A stretch of 64,000 nucleotides of DNA from Candidatus Woesebacteria bacterium RIFCSPHIGHO2_01_FULL_39_23 (GCA_001792305.1 MGGH01000036.1:18599-82598); one strand, 5' to 3'; numbered from the stretch's first letter, positions 14,599 to 39,307 are shown. Program-made: numbers and translations. The notes: a model not told the origin generated them from the sequence alone.

Positions 14599-14890
14599 GC
14601 TCTGGAGGAAGGGCAATCGGGCCGCGGAGCCTCGGCGAAGTGGTCAGGAAAGTCCAGGCAGCTCAAGGCAGGAGACGAGGTGTAAACCTTGACGGGTAAC
14701 CGCTGGTTAGAGCAACAGAGACTACAACTCACCCCTAACCTAAAAGGTTTGGGGAAGAGGGTGAAAAGGGCAATCCCCTCCGCTGCAACCTCCGAATGGG
14801 GCGCTGAAGGTAAGCCTTGCCGAGCCCCGAAGTTTGAGGGCATAGATTGATGGTTGCCGAAAAACAGAACCTGGCTTACTCGCCTCCGGA
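14599..14890 (+). ncRNA. rnpB: RNase P RNA (reduced bacterial type)
   Basis: Universal P4 strands GGAAAGTCCAGGC (14647-14659) and ACAGAACCTGGCTTA (14854-14868), with an A:T covariation at the usual G:C position. AGGGTGAAAAGGGC matches the P10-12 module. P1 pairs GCTCTGGAGG with CCTCCGGAGC. Extended -10 TGgTATAAT at 14584-14592 upstream, and a T-run after the 3' end. GC-rich island in an AT-rich genome. Confidence 0.8.
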
Positions 14891-14898
14891 GCACCAAA

Positions 14899-25580: not shown

Positions 25581-26939
25581 TCAAGAAAAAGTGGATTTTA
25601 GTTCTTTAATTCTTTTTAGCAAAGTATCTCTGCTATTTTCGATTTTTTTCTCTACCACTTTCTCAAAAAGATTATTTAATATTTCCCCGACCTTTGGTCC
25701 TGGGCGAAGTCGGAGGGTTTTCATTACATCGTTTCCGTCAATTTTAAGATCCCGAACAGTAAAAGGCTGTTTTTGAACCTCAATTAATCTTCTTTTGAAT
25801 TCTTCCAGTCTCCAAGAAGTTTCTCTTGCTCCCCCTCCAAGTCTATCTGCCACCCGAAGCATTAAAATATCGGGAATATTTTCCTTGCCAACGTTTCGGA
25901 TGAAACGTCTAAGCGCTGAATCTGTCTGGTTTTCATTAACCGAAAACATATGCCAGCGCACAAGTTTTAAGAGTTTATTTTTGTCTTTGTTTGAAAGTTT
26001 AAGTCTGTCGGCGATTTTAGCAGCTATTTTGGTGCTTACGACTTCATGGTTATAAAAAGTTATCGTTCCGTCTTCGATTTTTTTAAAAGTCCTCGCTTTT
26101 CCAATATCATGGATCAAAGTGGCTAGTCTTGTTATTGGATCATCCGAATTGCAGTATTTTAGGGCCATTACCAGATGGGTACCAACATCGAAGGTATGGT
26201 GTCTTCCTGGTGACTTTTGTTCTACTCCAAAGTTTTCTTCGAGTTCTGGTAGTATTTCGTGCATCAGGCTTGAGCTTTTAAAGATAACAATTCCTTCAAA
26301 AGAGAAACTGGATGAAATGGTTTTTAATAATTCATCGCGAACTCGCTCAGCAGCAATTTCATTAATTAAATTAGAGTGCATCTTGATCGCTTCGAAAGTT
26401 TTTTCTTCGATTGTAAAACCTAACTGGGATGCGATTCGGATAGCTCTCATCATTCGTAGAGCGTCCTCGTTAAATCGCTCATTAGCGTTTCCTACTGCTT
26501 TCACCACTTTGTTTTTAAGGTCATTTTGTCCTTCAAATAAATCTATTATTTTAATACCCATTCCATCGAGTTTTATTGCAAGAGCATTTATAGTAAAATC
26601 TCTCCTTTTAAGGTCTTCTTCCAGAGACTTTCCCCAGAGCACTTTATCGGGACGTCTGTGGTCGCTGTATCCATGCTCGGTTCTGTATGTCGTTACTTCG
26701 TGTGGCTTAAATCCTGACTCGCTATTTATTCCAACTGTCCCGTAATTATTATCATAAAAAGAGTCTTTAAAAATTTTTAGTATATCTTCAGGTGTAGCAT
26801 TGGTTGTAAAATCCCAGTCGATGACCGGACGTCCCGTAAGCAAATCCCGTACTGCTCCACCTACAATGTAGACTTCGTAGCCATTATTCTCAATTTTTTT
26901 GTAAATTTTGATTACCTCTTCTGGTAACTTAGTTTCCAT
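25581..26939 (-). CDS. cca: CCA-adding enzyme / tRNA nucleotidyltransferase with HD domain
   Basis: PolyA-polymerase head domain VYIVGGAVRDLLTGRPVIDWDFTTNATPE. HD domain IHDIGK. Confidence 0.85.
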   Translation of the reverse strand: METKLPEEVIKIYKKIENNGYEVYIVGGAVRDLLTGRPVIDWDFTTNATPEDILKIFKDSFYDNNYGTVGINSESGFKPHEVTTYRTEHGYSDHRRPDKVLWGKSLEEDLKRRDFTINALAIKLDGMGIKIIDLFEGQNDLKNKVVKAVGNANERFNEDALRMMRAIRIASQLGFTIEEKTFEAIKMHSNLINEIAAERVRDELLKTISSSFSFEGIVIFKSSSLMHEILPELEENFGVEQKSPGRHHTFDVGTHLVMALKYCNSDDPITRLATLIHDIGKARTFKKIEDGTITFYNHEVVSTKIAAKIADRLKLSNKDKNKLLKLVRWHMFSVNENQTDSALRRFIRNVGKENIPDILMLRVADRLGGGARETSWRLEEFKRRLIEVQKQPFTVRDLKIDGNDVMKTLRLRPGPKVGEILNNLFEKVVEKKIENSRDTLLKRIKELKSTFS

Positions 26940-26957
26940 TAAGATAAATTATACGAT

Positions 26958-28595
26958 ATGGAGAGTGTTAAGTGGGAGATTTTAAATAAAAATAAAAACG
27001 TGGATATTGTGAAGACTCTTCTGACTAATCGTGGAATTAAAACAAAAAAACAGCAAGTAGAATTTTTGGATCCAAAGCATCCTAATGACTTTAGATTAAA
27101 AGAATTAAAAATAGATAAGACCCAGGTTGGAAAGACAATCCGGAGAATTAACACGGCAATTGCAAAGAAAGAAAAAATTGTTGTTTACGGGGACTACGAT
27201 GCCGACGGAGTTTGTGCAACAGCGATAGTGTGGGAAGCTTTATGGGACTTAAAGGCTGATGTTATGCCTTATATTCCTGAAAGATTTTCCGAGGGGTACG
27301 GTTTAAATGCAAAAAGTGTCGAAAAGCTTAAAATTAAGTATCCAAATCTTAAGTTAATAATTACTGTTGATAATGGAATTGTTGCCGCAAACGCAGTATC
27401 AACTGCTACTAAACTTGGCGTAGATGTAATAATTACAGACCATCATGAAAAAGGCGAAACTTACCCAAAGGATGCATATTCGATTATTCATACCAAAGAA
27501 ATTGGCGGTGCGGGTATAGCTTGGGTAGTTTCGCGAGAGATTAATGGGGTATTTGCGATCGACCAACTGGATATAACCGCTATCGGGACAATTGCCGACC
27601 AGCTTCCTTTAGTTGGACCAAATAGAAGTTTTGCTAAATACGGCATCCTCACTTTGCGAGAAACAAAAAGACCGGGGTTAAGAGAAATTTGTAATCTTGC
27701 TACAATTGATCCTAAAACCATTGATACATATCATGTGAACTTTATGATTGCTCCGCGAATTAACGCTATGGGCAGACTTGCACATGCCATTGAATCACTC
27801 AGATTGCTGTGTACAAAAAGTCCAGCAAAGGCTCTTGAACTATCTACTTTGCTCGAGAAAACCAACAGAGATAGGCAAAACTTAGTTGAGGAAATGGTAA
27901 TTGACGCAAAAGAGAAAGCATTAAAGACCAATGAAAAAATAATAATTTTACATAGTGATAATTACCACGAAGGAGTAATTGGACTAGCGGCAAGCCGACT
28001 AGTAGAAGAATTTTACCGGCCGTCCATTGTTTTATCAATTAGAGGCGATATTGCAAAAGCCTCGGCCAGATCTGTTAGTGGTTTTAACATCATTAAGGCA
28101 ATTAGGTTAGTAAATGAATACTTGATCGAAGGTGGGGGGCACGAAATGGCCGCCGGGTTTTCAATAGAGACCAAAAATATTGAAATTTTTACACAACAAC
28201 TTATTCGCAAAACTAGAGAATTTTTGACAGAAGATTTGCTCCAAAAGAAGCTCAAAATAGATTTGGAGTTAGATCTGCCGGATTTAAATTTTGATTTAGT
28301 TGATAGAATTAGACAGCTCGAGCCATTCGGAATCGGCAACCCAAGCCCCACTTTTTTAACAAAAAAAGTCCAAGTTGTCGATTTCAGAACAGTTGGAGGT
28401 GAAGGCAAACATTTGAAACTCACCCTTTCTAAAGATGGTATTAAAGTCAATGCAATAGCTTTTGGAAGGGGTAATTTGGCCGTAGCAATTATTCCTGGTC
28501 AGACAGTAGATGTTGTTTATACACCAGAGGAAAATGTTTGGATCGGAAAGCGAGAGATTCAAGTAAAAATCAAGGACATAAGGACAAACTCGTAA
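26958..28595 (+). CDS. recJ: Single-stranded-DNA-specific exonuclease RecJ
   Basis: DHH motifs VVYGDYDADGVCATAI, TVDNGI and ITDHHE, plus a DHHA1 domain. Confidence 0.9.
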   Translation: MESVKWEILNKNKNVDIVKTLLTNRGIKTKKQQVEFLDPKHPNDFRLKELKIDKTQVGKTIRRINTAIAKKEKIVVYGDYDADGVCATAIVWEALWDLKADVMPYIPERFSEGYGLNAKSVEKLKIKYPNLKLIITVDNGIVAANAVSTATKLGVDVIITDHHEKGETYPKDAYSIIHTKEIGGAGIAWVVSREINGVFAIDQLDITAIGTIADQLPLVGPNRSFAKYGILTLRETKRPGLREICNLATIDPKTIDTYHVNFMIAPRINAMGRLAHAIESLRLLCTKSPAKALELSTLLEKTNRDRQNLVEEMVIDAKEKALKTNEKIIILHSDNYHEGVIGLAASRLVEEFYRPSIVLSIRGDIAKASARSVSGFNIIKAIRLVNEYLIEGGGHEMAAGFSIETKNIEIFTQQLIRKTREFLTEDLLQKKLKIDLELDLPDLNFDLVDRIRQLEPFGIGNPSPTFLTKKVQVVDFRTVGGEGKHLKLTLSKDGIKVNAIAFGRGNLAVAIIPGQTVDVVYTPEENVWIGKREIQVKIKDIRTNS

Positions 28596-28596
28596 C

Positions 28597-29100
28597 TTAA
28601 TGTCCGTATTTTTTCAAAAAATTGACGACCTCTTTTACTTTCATGTATTTAATCAACATTTTTTGGTTCTCATTACATAATTTGTTTAGAGCGTTGTAAA
28701 ATAATTTTCCGTTTTTGGCGTCCCTTACAATTATTAAATCCTTTTTAACCTTTAAACAAATCGCGGCTTCATTAAGAGTTCCTAATGACCCCGCTATGGA
28801 TATAACTAAGTCTGCTGTTACTGATACCAGAGTATCCCTAGTTATTCTTAACCCAGTTGTAAGTGCAATGTCGATGAACTTATTGGCATCAGTTTTTTGA
28901 GTTTCAGGAAGAATGCCTATTGTTAAAACTCCACTTTTCTTTGCACCCCTTGCTGCAGCTTCCATTATTCCAGTCATACCGCCACAAATAAGCACATGGT
29001 TTGATGGATTTAGCGCAGATCCTACCTGTAACGCTATTTGATAATCTTTACTTTTTCTTGGCACTCCTGCTCCGCCGATAATTGTAATATTTCTGTACAT
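28597..29100 (-). CDS. TIGR00725/LOG-like Rossmann-fold nucleotide-binding protein
   Basis: ITIIGGAG...ICGGMTGIMEAAARGAK is a LOG/SLOG-family pattern. Confidence 0.55.
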   Translation of the reverse strand: MYRNITIIGGAGVPRKSKDYQIALQVGSALNPSNHVLICGGMTGIMEAAARGAKKSGVLTIGILPETQKTDANKFIDIALTTGLRITRDTLVSVTADLVISIAGSLGTLNEAAICLKVKKDLIIVRDAKNGKLFYNALNKLCNENQKMLIKYMKVKEVVNFLKKYGH

Positions 29101-29106
29101 ACGTAT

Positions 29107-29670
29107 TTAAGATAGTTCCAAGTACTCTTCGCGATCTCTAAAAGGAAAGTTGCTTAGTTTTAATCTTTTAAATTGTGTTGGATAATATTTTTTAAAGTCG
29201 GACCATTTTTTATCAGAATCTATTTTAATAATTCTTTTATTGTAGGGAGTTGGGAGGCGTCTTGTTATTGAATACATTATCTTGTGTTTAGAAGGCATAA
29301 ATATGCATAATCCTGCGGTAATAAAATGATCTGGGTGGCTACCCCACATGTCTGGAATAAACAAGGTATCAGATTTGTTTACATTCTTTTTTAACTTTAA
29401 ATAAATCGACAATTTATCTGTATTCGAAAGTCCACCGTCTGGAAAGTTTAAATATACAATGTTTGAGTCTTTAATATTATTGTCTAAACAGAATTTTTTC
29501 GTTTCTAGTTTTCTGGCATTTTTATATTCGTCTGGTTCCATATCGATATATGCGAACTGTTTACCTCCATCCGTGACAACAATCACTTTGTCGATTTTGC
29601 CGCTAATTATTTGACTGTAACAGCCGATAAACTCGTCATCATAGTGGGGTGATACTATAACGTTAGCCAT
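29107..29670 (-). CDS. PIG-L/LmbE-family N-acetylglucosaminyl deacetylase
   Basis: SPHYDDEFIGC and GSHPDH zinc-binding motifs of the LmbE family. Confidence 0.7.
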   Translation of the reverse strand: MANVIVSPHYDDEFIGCYSQIISGKIDKVIVVTDGGKQFAYIDMEPDEYKNARKLETKKFCLDNNIKDSNIVYLNFPDGGLSNTDKLSIYLKLKKNVNKSDTLFIPDMWGSHPDHFITAGLCIFMPSKHKIMYSITRRLPTPYNKRIIKIDSDKKWSDFKKYYPTQFKRLKLSNFPFRDREEYLELS

Positions 29671-30556
29671 TATACTTTTCCTCCAAAATATTTGAGATAT
29701 GCTCGATATGTCTTAAGCAAATAATGATCATTTTTCTGGTTTTATCTTCATCTAAAGATATAATTTCGGTCTGTTTTCGAAAACCCCATCTTTCGTACTC
29801 TTTCGATATGTGGTTAACCCACCAATTATATATTTCATATAGATGTTTAATAGATGAATCGTTCTGTTTATATTCTTCTAGATACTTCTTAAAAATTCTA
29901 TTTTTACCAGAAACAAGAATACCGTCATAAGCAAGGCGTGCTTTTTGTGAAAAAATCAGAGATACACACGCCCAACGTAAATGGTCATCTAAACCTTTTG
30001 CAATATCAGTTGTAACCTGAACAGTATTGCCAGCTCTATCTCCAATCATTCTCTTGATTACGCCAGGTTTTGACATATATTTTGAGTCGTATATCATTTG
30101 TCGTACCCCTCTTTTAAGCTCATTAACTAGTTGCAGCGACACAGTCTTTATGTGTGGATGTATTAATTCTTTAAGGATGTTTTTGCCATAAATGACTCGA
30201 GCATGTTTAAAGTAGTCGTATATAAAAAGACTTCTCAATAGAGAATACCCAAAGTTTTTTTTCCTTGGTAGCTCATCATAGCCATACGTATAAATATCGA
30301 TCGGTACTTTAAACTCTTCAACGTATTTTTCGTGTATTTTATATATAAGTTTTAATTTGTTTAAATCAATTTGATGTCGAGGTGTTTTTACGACGATCAT
30401 TAGGTCTATGTTACTATTTTCAGAAATATAAGTGTTGTTGGTAGTACTACCATATAAGACAATGGAAACTATCCAATCATTCGTGACTCTATTTAGTAAT
30501 CTGGAGGTTAACTCTTTTACTACCTTTGACTGATTAATTTTTTTGGTTTTTGGCAT
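29663..30556 (-). CDS. Minimal nucleotidyltransferase-fold protein (ANT/LinB-like)
   Basis: IVLYGSTTNNTYISENSNIDLMIVV is the GS...D.D NTase core. Helical C-terminal domain. Confidence 0.55.
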   Translation of the reverse strand: MPKTKKINQSKVVKELTSRLLNRVTNDWIVSIVLYGSTTNNTYISENSNIDLMIVVKTPRHQIDLNKLKLIYKIHEKYVEEFKVPIDIYTYGYDELPRKKNFGYSLLRSLFIYDYFKHARVIYGKNILKELIHPHIKTVSLQLVNELKRGVRQMIYDSKYMSKPGVIKRMIGDRAGNTVQVTTDIAKGLDDHLRWACVSLIFSQKARLAYDGILVSGKNRIFKKYLEEYKQNDSSIKHLYEIYNWWVNHISKEYERWGFRKQTEIISLDEDKTRKMIIICLRHIEHISNILEEKYNG

Positions 30557-31344
30557 ACGGTAATTACGTTCATACCTATTTTATTTAATGGGAAAATGTT
30601 TCTAGCCCTTTCCACTATATGCCTAAGTTTTCTTATCGGCCAGAATCTATAAAATGTCCAATTAACAGAAATAAAAGGTATTAAACCATGTAGTAAATTA
30701 TAAGTAAATTGATCGAACACAACGAAACCAGATCTAATGAGTTTTTGCTTGAGGTTTAAAATAGTTACAAAGTTTTCATTAGATTGTTTTTTCCAGTTAC
30801 TAAAGGGTGCGAAGGTATTTTTAGGGTAAAATTTGAACTTTTCTAATAGTAACTTTAGTATACCCGCTGTATTAAAGTAGTTTGGGTTTGATAAGATCAG
30901 AATTCCTCCTTTTTTAATAACCCTATACATTTCGTTGAAGGCTTTTTGGATATTCAAGAAGTGTTCTGCGGTTTCGATGCATATAATGTAATCAAAAAAA
31001 TTGTCGTTGAAAGGAAGTTTTCCACCTTCCCCAGTAATGAGTTTGGATTTTGGTGAATTATGCCTCGCGACTTTCAAAGCAACATCAGATATATCAACAC
31101 CATGGGTTTTCGCGCCTCTGTCGCTAAGATATTTAAGTAAGTGACCGTGTCCACAACCTATATCCAAAATCTTTTTATTATTAAATTCATTTATGTATTT
31201 ATCTAAAACTTCTTTTCCAAAATCTGATATTACCCCAAAAGGATTGAATGGAGAGATCACAAAATCTTGGCTTTTGTTATAAAAGTTTTTGATTTTGATG
31301 CTGTATTTCAGTGATTCCGAATTAGTATTTTTTTTGAGAAACAT
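30520..31344 (-). CDS. Class I SAM-dependent methyltransferase
   Basis: Motif I ILDIGCGHGHLLKYL. Motif II ICIETAEH. Confidence 0.75.
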   Translation of the reverse strand: MFLKKNTNSESLKYSIKIKNFYNKSQDFVISPFNPFGVISDFGKEVLDKYINEFNNKKILDIGCGHGHLLKYLSDRGAKTHGVDISDVALKVARHNSPKSKLITGEGGKLPFNDNFFDYIICIETAEHFLNIQKAFNEMYRVIKKGGILILSNPNYFNTAGILKLLLEKFKFYPKNTFAPFSNWKKQSNENFVTILNLKQKLIRSGFVVFDQFTYNLLHGLIPFISVNWTFYRFWPIRKLRHIVERARNIFPLNKIGMNVITVCQKPKKLISQR

Positions 31345-32368
31345 AGTTTTTACTATCAGTATTGATTGAGAAAGCCATAGCTTCTCTCATTGTCAAAGCT
31401 CTTTTAGGTAATTCCCCGGAATTTACAAGTTTTGCATGCAAAGCCCTGTTTTTTGTTTTGTAATAATAAAACCAAACAGTATAGTAGGTGATCACAAACA
31501 TTGTGTAGAAAATGTAAATATAATCTAGCCGTAGGGCAGCGTACCATATTCTTTTAATGTTAGTTTTTATCCATTTTAACAAAGGCCTATCAAAAAACTC
31601 TGGGTAAATATATGAAAGTTTTGCGTTGCCCTTGGCGTGCCACCTTTTTCTTTTTAAGATATTTTTTAGTGACGACGGATAACTATGGTAAACTTTGATA
31701 TCCTCTGCAATAATAATTTTATACCCCCTATTTATTAATTTAGCTGCGAACTCTCTGTCTTCTGAGGCTCCAATCCTTTCATTAAAACCGCCTAGTTTTT
31801 TAAACACACCTTTTCTTACGAGACAAAAACCGCCACTTAATGTTTTGATATATTCACCATCTTTATAGGATTGATAAGACCTTAAATCTTCCAAAAATTC
31901 ACACCTTTGTAATTGTGACTCGAACTCTTTGGGTTTCAAGAAGTTGGGGTAAATAGAAGCCACAGGATTTTTTGATTCAAGTAGATAAATGTATTTCTTA
32001 AGTTTATAAAACGTTTTATGATTGAATTCCATGTCGGAATCCACAAATAAAATAGTTTTGCCTTTTGCACGCCTAGCGCCAATATTGCGGGCGGCGGCAG
32101 GGCTCAAACCATTATTGCTATAAGTTAAGTGTAATTTTTTTCTAAAGCTTAGTGAAATTTTTTGTTTTTTTAAGGATGTATGTTTTAACGGGCTAACAAC
32201 AGCCACTATTTCCCATTTATATTTAACACTTTGTAATGATTCATAGAGATTGTTAATTAAAACAAGTAACTTTGGAAGGTGCCTGGTATGAACAGGAATA
32301 ACAATCGAAAGATCGTTTGACCCTGGACTATTTATTGTTTGTGTTGTCTTATGATTATTCATCGTCAA
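31322..32368 (-). CDS. Glycosyltransferase family 2
   Basis: LSIVIPVHTRH...FVDSDMEF. Overlaps the downstream methyltransferase gene, so likely the first gene of a five-gene minus-strand operon (32368..28597). Confidence 0.75.
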   Translation of the reverse strand: MTMNNHKTTQTINSPGSNDLSIVIPVHTRHLPKLLVLINNLYESLQSVKYKWEIVAVVSPLKHTSLKKQKISLSFRKKLHLTYSNNGLSPAAARNIGARRAKGKTILFVDSDMEFNHKTFYKLKKYIYLLESKNPVASIYPNFLKPKEFESQLQRCEFLEDLRSYQSYKDGEYIKTLSGGFCLVRKGVFKKLGGFNERIGASEDREFAAKLINRGYKIIIAEDIKVYHSYPSSLKNILKRKRWHAKGNAKLSYIYPEFFDRPLLKWIKTNIKRIWYAALRLDYIYIFYTMFVITYYTVWFYYYKTKNRALHAKLVNSGELPKRALTMREAMAFSINTDSKNYVSQKKY

Positions 32369-32419
32369 AAAAACCTCCTGTTTTTAAGGAGGTTTGATAA
32401 AACTTAAATCTTAGTTCGC

Positions 32420-32742
32420 ATCAAACCTCCGCCTTGACCCAGTTGGTAAGGCGGAAGTAAATTCTGTGAATTTGAACTTTCTTTGGCATGCGAATGAAAT
32501 TATACCAAAGATACAGTTGATTTTGTCAAGTAGAGGAAGTAATATACTTCCAAACCGTTTAAGCTTGACTAACATCGAGCAAGGTGAAGGAAGAAAGCCT
32601 TTTGGCAAATAGACCCTTCCGGAGGCGCCCGTAAAAGCGCATTTAATGAAGTTAAATTAAGGGTGGCACCGTCTTGAGCAAAGTCGAGAGACCCCTGTAA
32701 GTTAATGAAAAGTAGTTCGTTAATTTACAGGGTCTTTTTTGG
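32420..32742 (+). promoter_or_regulatory. T-box riboswitch leader (tRNA-sensing antitermination) upstream of the aspartate operon
   Basis: T-box consensus AATTAAGGGTGGCACCGTC at 32654-32672 (consensus AGGGUGGNACCGCG). Antiterminator A1 AGGG pairs with CCCT. The bulge TGGC would pair with a tRNA GCCA end (G73 discriminator). The 3' strand AGACCCCTGTAA doubles as the 5' arm of an intrinsic terminator (AGACCCCTGTAA...TTACAGGGTCT, then TTTTTT at 32735-32740), immediately before the ATG at 32751. Confidence 0.7.
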
Positions 32743-32750
32743 AAATAAAT

Positions 32751-33929
32751 ATGACACACTCAAGGGTATCCAAAAGAATTTTAAATTTAAAACCTTCAGC
32801 CACTCTTGCGGTCGACTCTTTAATTAAAGACCTTCAAGAAAAGGGTGAAAAAATAATCAATTTAGGCCTCGGAGAACCTGATTTTGATACGCCTCAGAGC
32901 ATTAAAAATGCAGCTATAAAAGCGATAAAAGATGGTTTTACTCATTATACAAAAGTAGAAGGAATAAAATCTTTAAGAGAAGCCATTGCTAAAAAATTAT
33001 TGGAAGAAAATAAAGTTAAATATATTCCGGAAGAAATAGTTGTAGGGGTTGGCAGCAAGCAGGTACTGTATAACGCTTTCCAAGTAATTTGTAATCCTGG
33101 CGATGAAGTTGTACTAATCTCTCCACTTTGGAATACTTATATCGAACAAATAAAATTAGCAGGTGCAAAACCAGTAGTTTCAAAACTTTCATTTCCATTC
33201 AAGCTAGTACCCCAAGACATTGAAAAAAAGATAACAAGGAAGACAAAAGCAATACTTTTAAATTATCCAAATAATCCGACTGGAATGACAATAGAAAGAA
33301 ATGTGCTAAAGGAAATAGCTAAACTTGCAGTTAATAGAAAAATATTTGTTATAAGCGATGAAATTTACGAGTCGCTTTTATATAGTAAAGTGCACACTTC
33401 TATAGCTTCATGGGGTAAAGAAATTAGAAATTTAACAATAACTATTGGCGGATTTTCTAAGACATATGCAATGACGGGTTGGAGAATTGGTTTTGGGGCA
33501 GGACCCAGAGATTTGATTTCTCCCATAATTTCTTTGCAAGGTCAAACAACTTTTAACACTTCTTCAATTTCTCAAATGGCGGCGCTAGCTGCAATTAAAT
33601 CTGGTCAGAACGACGTTCAAGCTATGCTTAAAGAGTATGAGAAAAGAAGAAATTTTATTTATAAAAGATTATCTAAAATTGAGGGTTTAGATTTGTATCT
33701 TCCTGATGGAGCCTTTTATTTTTTCATTGGTATTAAAAAATATTTGAATAAAAATATTTCTTCATCTAATCAATGGGCGCAAAAACTATTACAAGAAGAA
33801 AAGGTTGCAGTTATACCTGGAGAATCTTTTCTTTACCCTGACTTTTTCCGGATTAGTTTCACAACTTCACTTGAAAATGTTAAAGAAGGGTTAAAAAGAA
33901 TAGAAAGATTTGTTAAAAAATATGCGTAA
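32751..33929 (+). CDS. PLP-dependent aminotransferase, aspartate aminotransferase family (ORF track starts at TTG 32739)
   Basis: Fold-type I aminotransferase with the PLP-lysine motif GGFSKTYAMTGWRIGF and NPTG. Confidence 0.85.
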   Translation: MTHSRVSKRILNLKPSATLAVDSLIKDLQEKGEKIINLGLGEPDFDTPQSIKNAAIKAIKDGFTHYTKVEGIKSLREAIAKKLLEENKVKYIPEEIVVGVGSKQVLYNAFQVICNPGDEVVLISPLWNTYIEQIKLAGAKPVVSKLSFPFKLVPQDIEKKITRKTKAILLNYPNNPTGMTIERNVLKEIAKLAVNRKIFVISDEIYESLLYSKVHTSIASWGKEIRNLTITIGGFSKTYAMTGWRIGFGAGPRDLISPIISLQGQTTFNTSSISQMAALAAIKSGQNDVQAMLKEYEKRRNFIYKRLSKIEGLDLYLPDGAFYFFIGIKKYLNKNISSSNQWAQKLLQEEKVAVIPGESFLYPDFFRISFTTSLENVKEGLKRIERFVKKYA

Positions 33930-35427
33930 AATACCGACCACGATGGTTTCGCAACATCCAGATCATGCTAATAAACCATATTGGCATGATAATGAATTTA
34001 TTTCTACTAACAACGAGTCAGTAGAGTGTTTCTTATCTTATTCAGACTTGGGAGTTTCTGAGTATAAATGGGACTGGGAAGGCAAATTGGTTGACGAGTC
34101 AGTTCTGGAAAGGCTTTTAAGTGAGCATTTTGATTATTTTAAAAAGAATCAAATTGGACGGGATATATTTTTAACTTTCCGTCTTCCTAACCCAAAAGTT
34201 GAGACAGAATTTAGACTGGGCAGGGCTTTTATGGGAATCCTTTCTGCTGCACAACTTGCTAAACAAGTTGGGTTACACTTTCCTCCTCTTTTTGAAGTAA
34301 TCCTTCCTATGACGGGGAGTGCGGAGGAGATGATAGAAATTCAAGAGGCTTTTGCTGAAATAGCACAGCTTAAACACAAGCTTTACAATTTTAAAAATGG
34401 GTCATTAAAACACATAGAAGTTATTCCACTCTTTGAGCAAGTTGAAAAAGTCATTGATTCTGACAAAATCTTAAACAACTATGTTAGACTTCATGAGAAA
34501 AAATTTGGATTCACACCCTCTTATATAAGACCTTATGTAGCACGTAGCGATCCTGCCCTTAATTCAGGTATTGTTCCAACGATTCTGGCGATAAAGATTG
34601 CTCTTTCTCGTTATCTTGAATTTTCTCGGAAAACTGGCATTGAATTATATCCAATAATAGGAACAGGGTCACTTCCTTTCCGCGGTGGACTGAATCCAAA
34701 GACAGTTAACGACTTCTTAGAGGAATACAAGGGTATAAGAACTGCGCTTCTGCAGAGTGCATTTCGATACGATTATGGTATGGATGAGGTGAAGAGGGCC
34801 ATAGCCAAACTGGAGAATAAGCTTCCTGAAGCAGAAGCTCTCTCTATTACAAAGACAAAAGAAAAAAACTTAAGGAATGTGATTGCCGCTTTTGAGACTT
34901 TTTATAGAAAAACTATTGAGGGTGTTGCCCCTTTGGTGAATGAGGTAGCGACTCTTCTGCCCAAAAGAAGAGAAAGAGTTCAGCATATTGGACTTTTTGG
35001 ATATTCTCGGGGAGTGGGAAAGGTTAGGTTACCGCGAGCAATTGGTTTCACAGGTGCTTTGTATTCTTTGGGAATTCCGCCAGAGCTGATCGGGACAGGG
35101 AGGGGTTTACGAGAGGCAAGGAAAGTTGGGGTTCTTTCTGAAGTAGAAAAATACTATCAAGGGTTAAGAGGAGATATGATTCGTGCGGGTGCATTTTTAA
35201 ATAAAAGTGTTTTAATGAAACTTGCGAAACAAAATTCTTCCTGGGGAGAAATTTTGGAGGACGTAAGGCACGTTGAAAATTTTCTGGGGAAAGATTTATT
35301 ACCTCGTAATATAGATGAAATGGCACATGGCAAGTTGAGTGAAACCATTTTTGAGAAAGTTAAAAGCGGTGAGTCTAGTATCAGCGAGATTGCTGAGGCT
35401 GCAGCTTTGCGAAAAAGTTTAGGCTAA
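33922..35427 (+). CDS. ppcA: Archaeal-type phosphoenolpyruvate carboxylase (PepcA family)
   Basis: N-terminus MRKIPTTMVSQHPD, then RLPNP, IPLFE, GSLPFRGG, SAFRYDYG and LPRAIGF, collinear with about 500-aa archaeal PEPCs. Confidence 0.75.
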   Translation: MRKIPTTMVSQHPDHANKPYWHDNEFISTNNESVECFLSYSDLGVSEYKWDWEGKLVDESVLERLLSEHFDYFKKNQIGRDIFLTFRLPNPKVETEFRLGRAFMGILSAAQLAKQVGLHFPPLFEVILPMTGSAEEMIEIQEAFAEIAQLKHKLYNFKNGSLKHIEVIPLFEQVEKVIDSDKILNNYVRLHEKKFGFTPSYIRPYVARSDPALNSGIVPTILAIKIALSRYLEFSRKTGIELYPIIGTGSLPFRGGLNPKTVNDFLEEYKGIRTALLQSAFRYDYGMDEVKRAIAKLENKLPEAEALSITKTKEKNLRNVIAAFETFYRKTIEGVAPLVNEVATLLPKRRERVQHIGLFGYSRGVGKVRLPRAIGFTGALYSLGIPPELIGTGRGLREARKVGVLSEVEKYYQGLRGDMIRAGAFLNKSVLMKLAKQNSSWGEILEDVRHVENFLGKDLLPRNIDEMAHGKLSETIFEKVKSGESSISEIAEAAALRKSLG

Positions 35428-35463
35428 CTTGTATATTTAGGTTTAAGAAAATACAATACGAGT

Positions 35464-37269
35464 ATGGAAAGAACATTAATGACAGAAACTATAGAAAAGA
35501 TCAGCGAGAAGGTCTTGCTTAAAGGTTGGGTAGATACAGTTCGTGACCATGGAAAAATAACCTTTATCGATTTAAGAGACAGAAGTGGAATTGTTCAATG
35601 CGTCGGTCAAAATGTGCCGAAGGTAAGTGTAGAAAGCGTGGTTGAAGTTAAAGGTACTGTTGCCAAACGACCAGAAAAATTAGTTAATAAAAATCTTGAA
35701 ACAGGTGAAGTGGAAGTACAAATTGAAAAACTGGAGGTTATTTCTAAATCTTCCGAATTGCCTATAGACTTGGGTAAAAGTGAACTCGATTTAGAACTAC
35801 CGACTCTTTTAGATTATCGTTCACTGACACTCCGTCATCCAAAAATAAAGGCAATATTTAAGGTTCAAGAGGTTATTATTGATAGTTTCAGACGAGCTTT
35901 AAAGGCAAAAGAATTTGTCGAATTTCAAGCTCCGTCTATTATTTCATCGGCTCCTGAAGGAGGTGCAGAAATTTTCGAAGTTAAGTATTTTGGACACAAA
36001 GCTTATTTGGCGCAAAGTCCGCAGCTTTACAAATCTCTTTTGGTCAGCGTATTTGAGCGAGTTTTTAGTGTTAATAAGGTATTTCGGGCTGAGCCGAGTG
36101 TAACAACGCGGCATTTAACTGAAGTAGTAAGTTTAGACGCAGAATTTGGGTTTATTGACTCGTGGATTGAAATTAAAGATATGGCAGAGTATGTAGTTAA
36201 GTTTATTTTGAAAGAAGTTGAGAAAAATTGCTCTCATGAGCTTGAGATTTTCGGTGCTACGGTGCCTGCCGTATCGGATAAAATTCCATATCTTAAGTTA
36301 AGAGAAGCACAGCAAATTATTTATGAAAGAACGGGTCGTGACGTTCGTCAAGAAAAAGACCCTTCACCAGAAGACGAGCGGGAAATTTGTCGCTGGTCAA
36401 AAGAAGTGCACGGATCCGATCTTGTTTTTATTACTCATTATCCGACCAAATATAGGCCATTTTATACCTATCCCGACCCTGAAGATCCAGAGTATAACCA
36501 GGGGTTTGATCTAATAGGTAGGGGGACTGAATGGATGACAGGAGGAAGAAGGATCCATGATTACAAAACTCTGGTCGAACACGCAAGAAAATGGGGAATA
36601 AACCCCAAAAATATAGGACTTTATCTTCAAGCTTATGAATACGGGATGCCACCGCTTGGGGGATTTGCATTTGGCGCAGAGCGAATTACTATGCATGTTT
36701 TAGGTCTTAAAAATATCCGAGAAGCTTCGCTTTTTCCTCGTGACATGGAACGTGTCGATTCCCTATTTTCGACAATGAAGAACACAAACGTTGATAAGCA
36801 GAAAACTGGTAAATCGGTTTACGAGGCAATACTTGATTTATTAAAAGCAAAGAAAATTGAATATAAGCACTACGAACATAAGCCAGTTTTTACAAGCGAG
36901 GAATCAGCTAAAGTTAGAGGTACAAATATTCACCAGGGGGCAAAAGCATTAGTTTTACAAGCTGGTAAAGAATTTATTTTGTATGTTTTACCAGCAGATT
37001 TTAAAGCCGAATTGGAGGCAATTAGAGAAAAACTTGGAATTGAAAGGCTTGTAATGGCATCAAAAGAAAGTGTTAAAGCAAAGATAGGTCTGGAGATAGG
37101 TTCCGTTCCTCCTTTAGGTTCGGTTATAAATTTGAAGACTCATGTCGACTCTCGACTTTCGGAAAACGAAGAAATTGCTTTTAATGCCGGAAGGCACGAC
37201 AGATCCATCAAGATGAAATACTCTGACTTTATTAAATTAGAGGAGCCAGAGGTAGTGCATCTGACTTAA
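35464..37269 (+). CDS. aspS: Aspartyl-tRNA synthetase (archaeal/eukaryal type) fused to a C-terminal YbaK/ProX-like aminoacyl-tRNA deacylase domain
   Basis: Residues 1-~435: OB fold plus class II core (FRAE, GGFAFGAERITM). Residues ~440-601 align with E. coli YbaK (LLKAKKIEYKHYEHKP; KALVLQAGKEFILYVLPADFKAELEAIREKLG...GSVPPLG; IAFNAGRHDRSIKM). Confidence 0.9.
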   Translation: MERTLMTETIEKISEKVLLKGWVDTVRDHGKITFIDLRDRSGIVQCVGQNVPKVSVESVVEVKGTVAKRPEKLVNKNLETGEVEVQIEKLEVISKSSELPIDLGKSELDLELPTLLDYRSLTLRHPKIKAIFKVQEVIIDSFRRALKAKEFVEFQAPSIISSAPEGGAEIFEVKYFGHKAYLAQSPQLYKSLLVSVFERVFSVNKVFRAEPSVTTRHLTEVVSLDAEFGFIDSWIEIKDMAEYVVKFILKEVEKNCSHELEIFGATVPAVSDKIPYLKLREAQQIIYERTGRDVRQEKDPSPEDEREICRWSKEVHGSDLVFITHYPTKYRPFYTYPDPEDPEYNQGFDLIGRGTEWMTGGRRIHDYKTLVEHARKWGINPKNIGLYLQAYEYGMPPLGGFAFGAERITMHVLGLKNIREASLFPRDMERVDSLFSTMKNTNVDKQKTGKSVYEAILDLLKAKKIEYKHYEHKPVFTSEESAKVRGTNIHQGAKALVLQAGKEFILYVLPADFKAELEAIREKLGIERLVMASKESVKAKIGLEIGSVPPLGSVINLKTHVDSRLSENEEIAFNAGRHDRSIKMKYSDFIKLEEPEVVHLT

Positions 37270-37367
37270 ATAATGTATATCATTTAAGTCACGGATATTA
37301 AGATTTTTAGAACCGGAGTTTCTACTTGTTATTTTAAATCTCCGAATTTAAACTTTGAGATACGATT

Positions 37368-38273
37368 ATGAAACTTATGATCCTATCTGCTTGTGTATTT
37401 TTAATTGTCAGTTTGTTTAGTTTGACATTGTCATTTGAGAAAGCCAAAAGACAGACCTTCCACGAGCCGCAAAAAGTATTGGCTTATAATACTTCATCTA
37501 AAATTATTCCTCTTTTGAAAAATGACGCAGTTCCTCCTGTTGTATCAGCCCAAGGAGCACTTGCTGTTGACCTTGATACAGGAGTTTCTTTATACCAAAA
37601 AGACGCAGACAAAAAACTATTTCCAGCTTCAACTACAAAAATAATGACGGCATTAATTGCTTTGGAAAATTATTCTTTAGATGAAGCCTTGGAAGTAAAA
37701 AGATCCGGTGTAGAAGGTCAAAAAATGAGACTTATTTTAGGCGAGCGAATGAAAGTGGAAAATTTACTTAATGGTTTGCTTATTTTTAGTGCTAATGACG
37801 CAGCAGAGGTGTTTGCAGACAATTTCCCTGAAGGAAGAGAAAGTTATGTCGATCAAATGAATAAATTAGCTAGGAAACTAAACCTGGCTGATACCAGGTT
37901 TGAAAACCCGACGGGACTTGACGGGAATAGTCAGGTTACAAGTGCAAGAGATATGATAAGACTTACCTCGTATGCTATGAAAAACCCGATTTTCAGGAGA
38001 ATTGTATCTACCAAAGAGTTAACTGTATATAACATTGAGGGTACAATACCCCATAAACTTAAAAATCTTAACGAACTTTTAGGAGAAGTTGAGGGTGTGG
38101 TGGGTGTAAAAACCGGATGGACTGAAAATGCCCGCGAGAACCTTGTAACTTATGTTGAAAGGGACGATAGGCGAATTGCCATGGTACTTTTGGGTAGTCA
38201 AGACAGGTTTGGTGAAACAAAAGAACTGATTGAATGGATATTCAGTGAATATGATTGGGTTTACTCCCCGTAA
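37368..38273 (+). CDS. D-alanyl-D-alanine carboxypeptidase (S11 peptidase, PBP5/6-like)
   Basis: Signal peptide. SxxK motif ASTTKIMTALIALE. SAN-like motif FSANDAA. Confidence 0.85.
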   Translation: MKLMILSACVFLIVSLFSLTLSFEKAKRQTFHEPQKVLAYNTSSKIIPLLKNDAVPPVVSAQGALAVDLDTGVSLYQKDADKKLFPASTTKIMTALIALENYSLDEALEVKRSGVEGQKMRLILGERMKVENLLNGLLIFSANDAAEVFADNFPEGRESYVDQMNKLARKLNLADTRFENPTGLDGNSQVTSARDMIRLTSYAMKNPIFRRIVSTKELTVYNIEGTIPHKLKNLNELLGEVEGVVGVKTGWTENARENLVTYVERDDRRIAMVLLGSQDRFGETKELIEWIFSEYDWVYSP

Positions 38274-39307
38274 TATTCACTCGTTATTGCCGGTACATAT
38301 GCCATGAAGTTTTTATCACCCTCAAAAACGACTATTGGCTGGTAGAAGTCTGTCGGGAAACCGGCGTCGTAATATGCCATATAGACCTTTCGTATCGATA
38401 CCGTACCTTCAAAATTTTGGCCAATTGAAGCGATATATCCTTGAGAGTTTTTTAGTTCCTCGAACGACTGTGTGGAAGACTTTAGTGGATATGTAGTAAA
38501 TTTTTCTTTGTCTACAGGAAAATACAAGTTTTCGCCAGCAAGCACCTGATCGCGACCGCCAGAACCTGACAGAATCAGCCAGACATTAGCTTGGTTTGGG
38601 AAAGGGGTAAGGCTGGGTAGTTTATCATATGGTTCTCTAAAAAGATTAACTTTAATGAGGTTTGCTTCGGATAAAGACACAACAGAAACAAGATCTTTTT
38701 TCTCAACTCGCAGTAATTCGTGTGTGGAATCACCTCTTCCTATATCATCGGAAAGCACATTTGCAGCCGCAAGTATTGCTTTTGCGCGAGGAATGGCAAC
38801 TTCAGGCGCAGGAGGTCTGTTTTCAAGCGGATTTAAAAATCCTTCCAGATCATAACTAATTGAAAATATTTTTGTAGCGATATTTATCTCGAGTTGGGAG
38901 GGAAGTGAAGGGTGAGAAAATCTGTATACAGTTTGCGATACACGGAACGGGTCAGTGTTAAACCCCAAAAGGTTAGCTGTAATTCGTGATCTTTCCAATG
39001 AGTAAAGCGTTATAGTACTTTTGGGCATAAAAAATACTTTACCTTGGTCAGGGAACTTTGGCAGCTCTCCATCTATGGTTTCAAGTTTGTATTCAAACTT
39101 TGGTAGTCCTTCAACATTCGGGAAAGGAAGTGCCGGAAGTTTACCAAAAGCAACGGCTGGTTTTGGAGTTGGTTCCGGAACTAAAGATCTATAAATTCTT
39201 CCAGCTATTCCTAAAAATGTTCTTCCAAATATGATAAGAAGGATTAAGATTACAGAAAGTTTGATCGTTGTTCGTGTAGCTATAGCAATACGGGTTAACT
39301 TTGTCAT
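38261..39307 (-). CDS. Hypothetical membrane-anchored protein (start chosen at ATG 39307 with RBS AAGGAAAG, not the track start at 39400)
   Basis: N-terminal TM segment LSVILILLIIFG. Long extracytoplasmic region with no recognised domain. Confidence 0.4.
   Translation of the reverse strand: MTKLTRIAIATRTTIKLSVILILLIIFGRTFLGIAGRIYRSLVPEPTPKPAVAFGKLPALPFPNVEGLPKFEYKLETIDGELPKFPDQGKVFFMPKSTITLYSLERSRITANLLGFNTDPFRVSQTVYRFSHPSLPSQLEINIATKIFSISYDLEGFLNPLENRPPAPEVAIPRAKAILAAANVLSDDIGRGDSTHELLRVEKKDLVSVVSLSEANLIKVNLFREPYDKLPSLTPFPNQANVWLILSGSGGRDQVLAGENLYFPVDKEKFTTYPLKSSTQSFEELKNSQGYIASIGQNFEGTVSIRKVYMAYYDAGFPTDFYQPIVVFEGDKNFMAYVPAITSEYYGE

Follow-up and report, generated by a model that had tools for sequence, protein, structure and literature searches.

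We analysed a 64,000-nt stretch of the genome of Candidatus Woesebacteria bacterium RIFCSPHIGHO2_01_FULL_39_23 (GCA_001792305.1, MGGH01000036.1:18599-82598; hereafter the window), in which a leader RNA lies ahead of three co-oriented genes encoding a class I pyridoxal phosphate (PLP) aminotransferase, an archaeal-type phosphoenolpyruvate (PEP) carboxylase (PEPC), and an archaeal-type aspartyl-tRNA synthetase (AspRS) fused to a YbaK-superfamily domain (Table 1). The leader is contained in the 388-nt gap between a glycosyltransferase gene on the minus strand (31322-32362) and the aminotransferase ATG at 32751. An initial annotation of this DNA had recognized the three genes and their orientation, although the C-terminal YbaK-type domain was missed, and had interpreted the locus as a textbook T-box sensing tRNA-Asp in a genome resembling those of the candidate phyla radiation (CPR); the latter was correct, the host being a member of Ca. 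Woesebacteria. Our results indicate that the leader is very probably a T-box that responds to tRNA-Asn, belongs to a divergent short-stem subclass, ends in an intrinsic terminator, and controls Asp synthesis and a non-discriminating AspRS in Woesebacteria.

Table 1. Elements of the leader and genes located downstream, in window coordinates.
Feature	Position	Strand	Details
Predicted sigma-70-type promoter	32517-32545	+	-35 TTGATT (32517-32522), 17-nt spacer, -10 TAATAT (32540-32545)
Ultrashort Stem I	32554-32585 (32 nt)	+	ACC GUUU AA GCUUGA (CUAACA) UCGAGC AA GGU; C-stem ACC (32554-32556) / GGU (32583-32585); bulge GUUU; K-turn positions AA/AA
Stem I helix and loop	32563-32580	+	6-bp GCUUGA (32563-32568) / UCGAGC (32575-32580); terminal loop CUAACA (32569-32574)
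Specifier AAC (Asn)	32571-32573	+	Next nucleotide A (32574), a conserved purine; from model R1 and the loop register in sister leaders
Stem II	32586-32619	+	Lower GAAGG (32586-32590) / CCUUC (32615-32619); upper GCC (32597-32599) / GGC (32604-32606)
Stem IIA/B pseudoknot	32620-32640	+	IIA CGG (32620-32622) / CCG (32629-32631); IIB GCGC (32625-32628) / GCGC (32637-32640)
Stem III and A-rich linker to the T-box sequence	32642-32658	+	Short, AU-only, UUUAA UGAAG UUAAA; read from the sequence
T-box sequence and antiterminator	32659-32696	+	AAGGGTGGCACCG at 32659-32671; A1 32660-32663 / 32693-32696; A2 GUCUU (32671-32675) / GAGAC (32688-32692)
Intrinsic terminator	32689-32740	+	17-pair stem 32693-32732, extendable to 32689-32735, then U-run
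Class I PLP aminotransferase	32751-33929	+	PF00155 252 bits; best NCBIfam match NF041091 (archaeal aspartate aminotransferase), 424 bits, cutoff 550
Archaeal-type PEPC	33922-35427	+	TIGR02751 486 bits (cutoff 146); PF14010
Archaeal-type non-discriminating aspartate-tRNA(Asn) ligase with YbaK-superfamily domain	35464-37269	+	Ligase aa 1-431; editing-like domain aa ~458-600

Detection of the leader and its boundaries

The general Rfam T-box model (RF00230) was run on the 401-nt leader as the initial annotation had proposed, and a significant match was not obtained, the score of 17.4 bits (E 0.09) lying below the gathering score of 93. Such an outcome had been listed in the initial annotation as a reason to reject the T-box, although taken alone it argues neither way. 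The alignment was confident (i.e., of high posterior probability) for the T-box and antiterminator part only, and the low score is due to the ultrashort Stem I and the non-canonical 5' half of the leader. Homologous leaders from related loci (designated by L numbers) gave significant scores that still lay below the gathering score, namely 50.6 bits for L005 (E 3e-8), 37.6 for L001 and 30.4 for L065. A class-specific covariance model, R1, was built from 20 related leaders, leaving out the window and its near-identical copies; it yielded a single match in both strands of the 64 kb, located at 32552-32641, with 62 bits and an E value of 1.4e-12. Regarding the recovery and alignment of leaders, a GGGTGGNACC regular expression caught only 3 leaders over the 80 Patescibacteria loci retrieved by a PEPC-based scan of GTDB genomes, the others being recovered with nhmmer and a covariance model; MAFFT misregistered Stem I when applied to 5 leaders, and the 20-sequence alignment was adequate.

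Judging from the predicted promoter and the R1 match, transcription most likely starts near 32552, and not at the position 32420 from which the leader had initially been annotated. The leader of L133 is near-identical to that of the window from the -35 box through the T-box, and the similarity begins exactly at the -35 box, with none upstream of 32517; its own promoter (TTGATT, 17-nt spacer, TATCAT; 9 of 12 positions) is found at the same distance from the K-turn as in the window. Most low-GC sister leaders also have a promoter, scoring 9-12 of 12 and ending 5-22 nt ahead of the K-turn. The window promoter is thus supported mainly by its conserved position in relatives, since its own match is weak. 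The location of the promoter directly ahead of the K-turn leaves no room for a long Stem I, and neither a long Stem I nor the distal double T-loop platform (AG bulge and distal loop) is present, the -10 box ending 8 nt upstream of Stem I.

Two other Stem I foldings were considered and discarded. The Rfam placement at 32508-32590 has low posterior probability and many non-canonical pairs, and crosses the promoter; a hand fold pairing GUCAAG (32525-32530) with CUUGAC (32565-32570) has its 5' strand in the promoter spacer according to the comparative data. Upstream of the leader promoter, the region 32363-32516 contains two strong hairpins, CCUCCGCCUU...AAGGCGGAAG (32427-32458) and UCUUUGGCAU...AUACCAAAGA (32479-32510), which show no conservation with L133 and no Rfam match, and which may be part of the 5' region of the divergent glycosyltransferase operon.

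RNA architecture and covariation

The Stem I hairpin is recovered by the unconstrained minimum free energy fold of the leader. Sister leaders display the same arrangement, in which a C-stem of 3 bp and a bulge of 3-4 nt are followed by tandem purines, a helix of 4-6 bp and a loop of 5-7 nt whose last positions are a triplet plus A, with the K-turn geometry (C-stem, bulge, tandem purines) being kept. Downstream, the internal loop of Stem II (AAGAAA / AAAUAGAC) resembles an S-turn, and the Stem III region has an AUGAAG motif in common with L088 and L133.

Pairing was evaluated over the 20-leader alignment, counting the C-stem and hairpin of Stem I, the lower and upper helices of Stem II, IIA, and the IIB pseudoknot. 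Altogether, 91.1% of the cells were paired, as compared with 64.7 +/- 1.5% in 500 shuffles, none of which attained this value, compensatory changes occurred in 19 of the 24 pairs, and the covariation score was 0.695 against 0.19 in shuffles; when the partners were slid by 1-3 columns, pairing fell to 33-51%. By element, the C-stem was 100% paired with compensatory changes, and the Stem I hairpin covaried at all 5 pairs, even though members with a 4-bp stem and a 7-nt loop stay offset in the alignment and lower this helix (helix 2) to 73% paired. The lower helix of Stem II was 99% paired and its upper helix 92%, with compensatory changes in 5/5 and 4/4 pairs, respectively; IIA was invariant and 96% paired, and the IIB pseudoknot was paired in 90% of cells, with compensatory changes in the three pairs counted (3/3). 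Taken together, pairing in the Stem II and IIA/B helices reached 90-99%, 12 of their 16 pairs having changed in a compensatory way, and the window aligns over all of these helices.

In the 3' domain, AAGGGUGGCACCG at 32659-32671 corresponds to the conserved T-box sequence, which Rfam aligns with high posterior probability; its 7-nt bulge, UGGCACC (32664-32670), positions UGGC (32664-32667) for pairing with the tRNA 3' end GCCA. Compared with L133, helix A2 carries a U-A to C-G change that is compensatory. After the terminator stem at 32693-32732 comes TCTTTTTT, and the segment GACCCCU is common to the terminator and to the 3' strand of the antiterminator. Because the 5' strand of the terminator overlaps the 3' strand of the antiterminator, the two structures are mutually exclusive, the terminator form of the 3' domain having a calculated energy of -30.6 kcal/mol and the antiterminator one of about -9 to -11 kcal/mol. 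The hairpin with its U-run is the strongest terminator-like site within 32400-38400, and in L133 the sequence of the terminator stem has diverged with its pairing preserved. Moreover, 12 Asp/Asn leaders and the low-GC ileS leaders have a hairpin that overlaps the T-box 3' strand and runs directly into a U-run; high-GC actinobacterial-like ileS leaders lack it. Of the textbook T-box initially described, the T-box itself (62 bits with R1) and its exclusive antiterminator and terminator are real, whereas its textbook form is not, given the ultrashort Stem I and the 17.4 bits of RF00230.

Specifier and bulge across short-stem leaders

A pattern derived from the conserved Stem II/IIAB core, and thus blind to the downstream gene, was used to scan metagenomes, and the downstream open reading frames (ORFs) were classified with NCBIfam. 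Most of the 119 matches (L092-L210) have a long canonical Stem I, and about two dozen have a short hairpin; since leaders of both kinds match the pattern, the Stem II/IIAB core is almost identical between them. The long-stem matches mostly carry a GAAGUCG specifier loop (GUC, Val-type).

Among short-stem leaders, the loop triplet agrees with the downstream gene wherever the latter could be classified; no assignment was possible for the ORFs that follow L161 and L184. Ten cases, full or partial, have the triplet AUC ahead of ileS (L096, L099, L105, L124, L135, L150, L153, L163, L175 and L176), GUC precedes valS (L111 and L203), GAC precedes a non-discriminating aspS (L107, L115, L121, L151 and L168, plus L090), and AAC precedes a non-discriminating aspS-YbaK (L133 and L088). 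Counting leaders ahead of PEPC, GAC stands before a non-discriminating aspS or PEPC in at least 9 cases, and AAC is found only ahead of the non-discriminating aspS-YbaK of L133 and L088 or ahead of the aminotransferase-PEPC pair (the window, L005 and L038). The bulge base follows these classes, with UGGU in Ile/Val leaders and UGGC in Asp/Asn leaders, and so do the discriminators of the tRNA genes in these loci, with A73 in 16/16 tRNA-Ile and tRNA-Val genes and G73 in 6/6 tRNA-Asp genes; at the level of the class, the initial proposal that the bulge C fits a G73 discriminator is supported. No tRNA-Asn gene was found in the 211 loci searched.

The R1 alignment places CUAACA in the specifier loop. 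Given that the specifier triplet and the bulge base both covary as the T-box mechanism requires, the window specifier is read as AAC (Asn), in the terminal loop of Stem I. The GAC or GAU specifier and the Asp-specific switch of the initial annotation do not hold, a codon for another amino acid having been named there as a reason to abandon them.

Genes and extent of the operon

The class I aminotransferase is probably an aspartate aminotransferase, according to its best NCBIfam match. The AspRS is of the non-discriminating type by its family scores (NF003483, 473 bits, cutoff 353; TIGR00458, 382 bits, cutoff 368; PF04073, 88 bits), with a predicted dual tRNA specificity. Neither GatCAB nor AsnRS was found among the 10 large ORFs of the window that were tested.

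The start of the PEPC gene overlaps the end of the aminotransferase gene by 8 nt, and the 36-nt gap between PEPC and aspS shows neither a hairpin nor a promoter-like match. On the plus strand of 32740-37269 no convincing terminator or promoter was detected; a weak promoter-like match lies inside aspS (35915-35942). Based on the overlap, the short hairpin-free gap, and the lack of a convincing internal terminator, aspS-YbaK would very probably be part of the T-box-regulated transcript.

The YbaK-like domain (about 36835-37266) has as its closest solved relative the uncharacterised 3OP6 (E 3e-17) and scores far below the YbaK equivalog cutoff. The AspRS-YbaK fusion recurs in dozens of Microgenomates protein clusters; other Woesebacteria have an unfused form of ~440 aa.

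Related loci and history of the operon

The aminotransferase-PEPC pair occurs in about 16 of the 80 PEPC loci, and a homologous leader in 5 of them (L001, L005, L017, L038 and L065), ahead of either the pair or PEPC alone. Close homologs of AspRS-YbaK (70-75% identity) are found in a conserved neighbourhood comprising the CCA-adding enzyme, RecJ, RelA (in some), aspS-YbaK, an S11 peptidase, a hypothetical gene and GluRS, in which the aminotransferase-PEPC pair is not present, and the same kind of leader lies directly upstream of aspS in 2 of 3 close relatives. In L133, the leader directly precedes aspS-YbaK, and the downstream genes match those of the window (S11 peptidase, 71% identity; hypothetical gene, 86%). 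Judging from these loci, the three-gene arrangement is lineage-specific and not a conserved design.

Comparison of window region 25581-32362 with L087, L088 and L090 indicates that relA/spoT was lost between recJ and aspS, and that the window gained the aminotransferase-PEPC pair along with five minus-strand genes (LDcluster4, PIG-L, a nucleotidyltransferase, a methyltransferase and a GT2 glycosyltransferase). In L090 (4463-4987), and also in L091, a 174-aa asparaginase/GatD-like ORF lies between a short-stem T-box with a GAC specifier and aspS-YbaK, and may act in Asn or Asp metabolism as a partner of the glutaminase or asparaginase type. In nine further loci (L013, L018, L020, L024, L025, L029, L031, L033 and L042), PEPC adjoins a conserved cluster of tRNA genes for Phe, Ile(UAU), Ala(CGC) and Arg(CCG); UAU is an unusual anticodon for a bacterial tRNA-Ile. 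Elsewhere in the window (14601-14894) there is a class A RNase P RNA of only 294 nt, as compared with the 367-nt model, which lacks several segments of the model and scores 110 bits, just over the gathering score of 100.

Alternative explanations

An Asp-specific T-box that senses tRNA-Asp would use a GAC specifier at 32567-32569, or one of the two candidates of the initial annotation, GACC at 32438 or GATA at 32516. GAC does occur in UUGACUAACA, overlapping the Stem I helix and loop, G73 of tRNA-Asp matches UGGC, and sister leaders on the same genes (L001, L017, L065 and L090) use GAC. However, the G and A of this triplet (32567 and 32568) are paired inside the helix, and the triplet is not kept in the other AAC leaders, where GGC (L005), GUA (L088) and CUC (L038) are found instead, whereas AAC followed by A occupies the loop position at which the AUC, GUC and GAC specifiers were validated. 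As for 32438 and 32516, both are upstream of the -35 box of the conserved promoter, in DNA not conserved with L133. We consequently regard Asp specificity as very improbable. With respect to the mode of control, short Stem I elements have so far been linked to translational regulation (PMC7583486, PMC11297988), and the 3' hairpin might mainly occlude ribosome access, alone or in a mixed mechanism, as in actinobacterial short-stem T-boxes. In L005, L038 and L065 the 3' strand of the terminator holds a GGAGG- or AAGGG-like sequence 8-12 nt ahead of the AUG, and L168, without a U-run, looks like a design sequestering the Shine-Dalgarno (SD) sequence. We consider such control quite unlikely for the window, where UCUUUUUU comes after the end of the hairpin at 32735, and where the sole SD-like sequence, GGA (32741-32743), is outside the hairpin, with the AUG 16 nt further on. 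Moreover, the hairpin and U-run of L017, L105 and L176 are 170-350 nt upstream of the gene and cannot, therefore, occlude its ribosome site, and the high-GC actinobacterial-like members have no U-run, so that the two types of platform are separable.

The third alternative concerns the operon, whose three genes could be together by an accident of gene order, with the T-box governing the aminotransferase and PEPC only and aspS-YbaK transcribed separately. Consistent with this, aspS adjoins PEPC in none of the 80 related PEPC loci, it follows relA or has its own leader in close relatives, units of T-box, aminotransferase and PEPC exist without aspS (L005 and L038), and a weak promoter-like match is located at 35915-35942, inside aspS and not upstream. 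Yet the gap of only 36 nt described above offers neither a hairpin nor a promoter-like match. In addition, the AAC leaders of L088 and L133 regulate the same aspS-YbaK gene directly, and the window leader is orthologous to the aspS leader of L133, so that the aminotransferase-PEPC pair sits between aspS and its ancestral switch. Separate transcription of aspS is, in our judgement, unlikely.

Discussion

A tRNA-Asn-responsive T-box brings together what was shown here, namely the covarying architecture of the leader RNA, the logic linking specifier and bulge to the genes and tRNAs, the competition of terminator with antiterminator, and the identities of the genes. Several points weigh against it. 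The promoter match of the window is weak (8/12, equalled in 76 of 200 shuffles). Its K-turn positions are AA/AA, in comparison with GA/GA in most relatives and GA/AA in L133, and a true K-turn at the base of the window Stem I might not form. Stem III, a weak hairpin of A-U pairs only, is the weakest element of the leader. The anticodon GUU and the discriminator G73 of tRNA-Asn in the genome of the window are assumed, and co-transcription of aspS with the aminotransferase-PEPC pair is read from gene spacing only. Finally, transcriptional T-boxes are held to need an elbow-binding platform for fast tRNA capture (PMC7583486); the short-stem terminator design may work differently, by means of a slow or pausing RNA polymerase, or through an added translational component.

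The tRNA-Asn-responsive switch would operate as follows. The RNA most likely starts near 32552, and its ultrashort Stem I presents AAC and the adjacent A in a 6-nt loop, without a platform for the tRNA elbow. Stem II and IIA/B would probably clamp the AAC-GUU codon-anticodon duplex, as in actinobacterial ileS T-boxes. By analogy with the T-box family, when uncharged tRNA-Asn is bound its free GCCA-3' end would pair with UGGC and stabilise the weak antiterminator, allowing RNA polymerase to read through; with acylated tRNA-Asn, the terminator (about -31 kcal/mol, plus the U-run) would form and transcription would stop at about 32740. Read-through would lead to expression of the aminotransferase and PEPC, and very probably of the non-discriminating AspRS-YbaK as well. 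Since a T-box detects only acylation of the tRNA 3' end, we infer that the switch would report the aspartylation of tRNA-Asn and not its later amidation. This aspartylation would depend on aspartate supply and on the activity of the non-discriminating AspRS, both of which the operon provides, and the sensing of Asn would fit accordingly with the genes controlled. Ahead of one and the same gene set, some sister leaders have GAC and others AAC, and this interchange among lineages would be explained if the switch reports aspartate supply and AspRS activity. Thus, from the initially proposed route leading from PEP through Asp to Asp-tRNA, the metabolic logic survives by way of the non-discriminating AspRS (NF003483, 473 bits), whereas tRNA-Asp sensing does not, and the adjacency of aspS and PEPC does not recur (0/80 loci).

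The window leader resembles canonical transcriptional T-boxes (RF00230; the type of Bacillus subtilis tyrS and glyQS) in its T-box with a 7-nt UGGN bulge, its exclusive antiterminator and terminator, and its specifier followed by a purine, and further in the K-turn-like geometry (here with AA/AA positions) at the base of Stem I, the S-turn-like loop of Stem II, the IIA/B pseudoknot, and its association with aminoacyl-tRNA synthetase and amino-acid biosynthesis genes. Unlike these, its Stem I is reduced to a 6-bp hairpin that carries the specifier in its terminal loop and lacks the AG bulge/distal-loop platform, which is reflected in the 17.4 bits against 93, and its host belongs to the CPR (Woesebacteria) and not to Firmicutes. 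With the ultrashort-Stem-I translational T-boxes of actinobacterial ileS genes (Sherwood et al. 2015 and the Mtb and N. farcinica structures, as reviewed in PMC7583486), it shares a specifier located in the apical loop and the retention of Stem II and IIA/B, which make up for the lack of contact with the tRNA elbow; the Stem II/IIAB core pattern also retrieves high-GC leaders of the actinobacterial ileS type from metagenomes (L099 and L184). Nevertheless, the expression platform of the window is an intrinsic terminator (17-bp stem and U-run) and theirs is an SD sequestrator, the specifier is AAC instead of AUC, and the controlled genes are those of an aminotransferase, PEPC and a non-discriminating aspS, instead of ileS, in a low-GC CPR genome.

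The nearest functional precedent is a T-box of Clostridium acetobutylicum, reported to control tRNA-dependent asparagine formation (Saad et al. 2012, as cited in PMC4206432). This T-box reportedly likewise ties the charging of tRNA-Asn to a non-discriminating AspRS, and C. acetobutylicum makes Asn-tRNA(Asn) by transamidation. That system differs in belonging to a Firmicute and in having a conventional long leader and amidotransferase genes in the operon, whereas the window operon carries PEPC and the aminotransferase and has no GatCAB.

In previous work, an ultrashort Stem I has been tied to translational control, and the elbow-binding platform has been treated as essential for transcriptional T-boxes (PMC7583486, PMC11297988). 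The short-stem model of TBDB was applied only to Actinobacteria or to existing Rfam matches (PMC7778990), and an early survey reported T-boxes only in Firmicutes, Actinobacteria, Chloroflexi, Deinococcus-Thermus and two Proteobacteria, with PEPC not mentioned (PMC2494555). In a limited set of literature, we found no paper connecting T-boxes with CPR or Patescibacteria. On balance, we are somewhat inclined to the view that the leaders described here define an unrecognised T-box subclass, extending across the CPR (Woesebacteria, Levybacteria and Parcubacteria) and other low-GC uncultivated bacteria, in which an ultrashort Stem I without elbow contact would drive transcription attenuation, in which the Asn members would use tRNA-Asn as a proxy for aspartate supply and non-discriminating AspRS activity, and through which PEPC would join the T-box regulon.

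If this is true, the subclass would contradict the view of the elbow-binding platform as essential for transcriptional T-boxes, and archaeal-type PEPC, an anaplerotic carbon-fixing step, would be added to the T-box regulon. T-boxes are a model system of RNA-RNA recognition and candidate antibiotic targets, and the rule of the field, by which a short Stem I goes with slow, reversible translational control and the platform with kinetically driven transcriptional control, would become testable with a natural family combining a short stem and a strong terminator. The question is thereby raised of whether timely tRNA capture is achieved through polymerase pausing, through slow CPR transcription, or by Stem II and IIA/B alone. 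In practical terms, compact tRNA-responsive switches of about 190 nt would be on offer for engineering. With regard to the CPR, whose regulatory RNAs are little known, T-boxes in these genomes are missed by standard Rfam annotation, and the leaders provide a clue, on the regulatory side, that such reduced genomes couple anaplerotic aspartate synthesis to the charging of tRNA-Asn.

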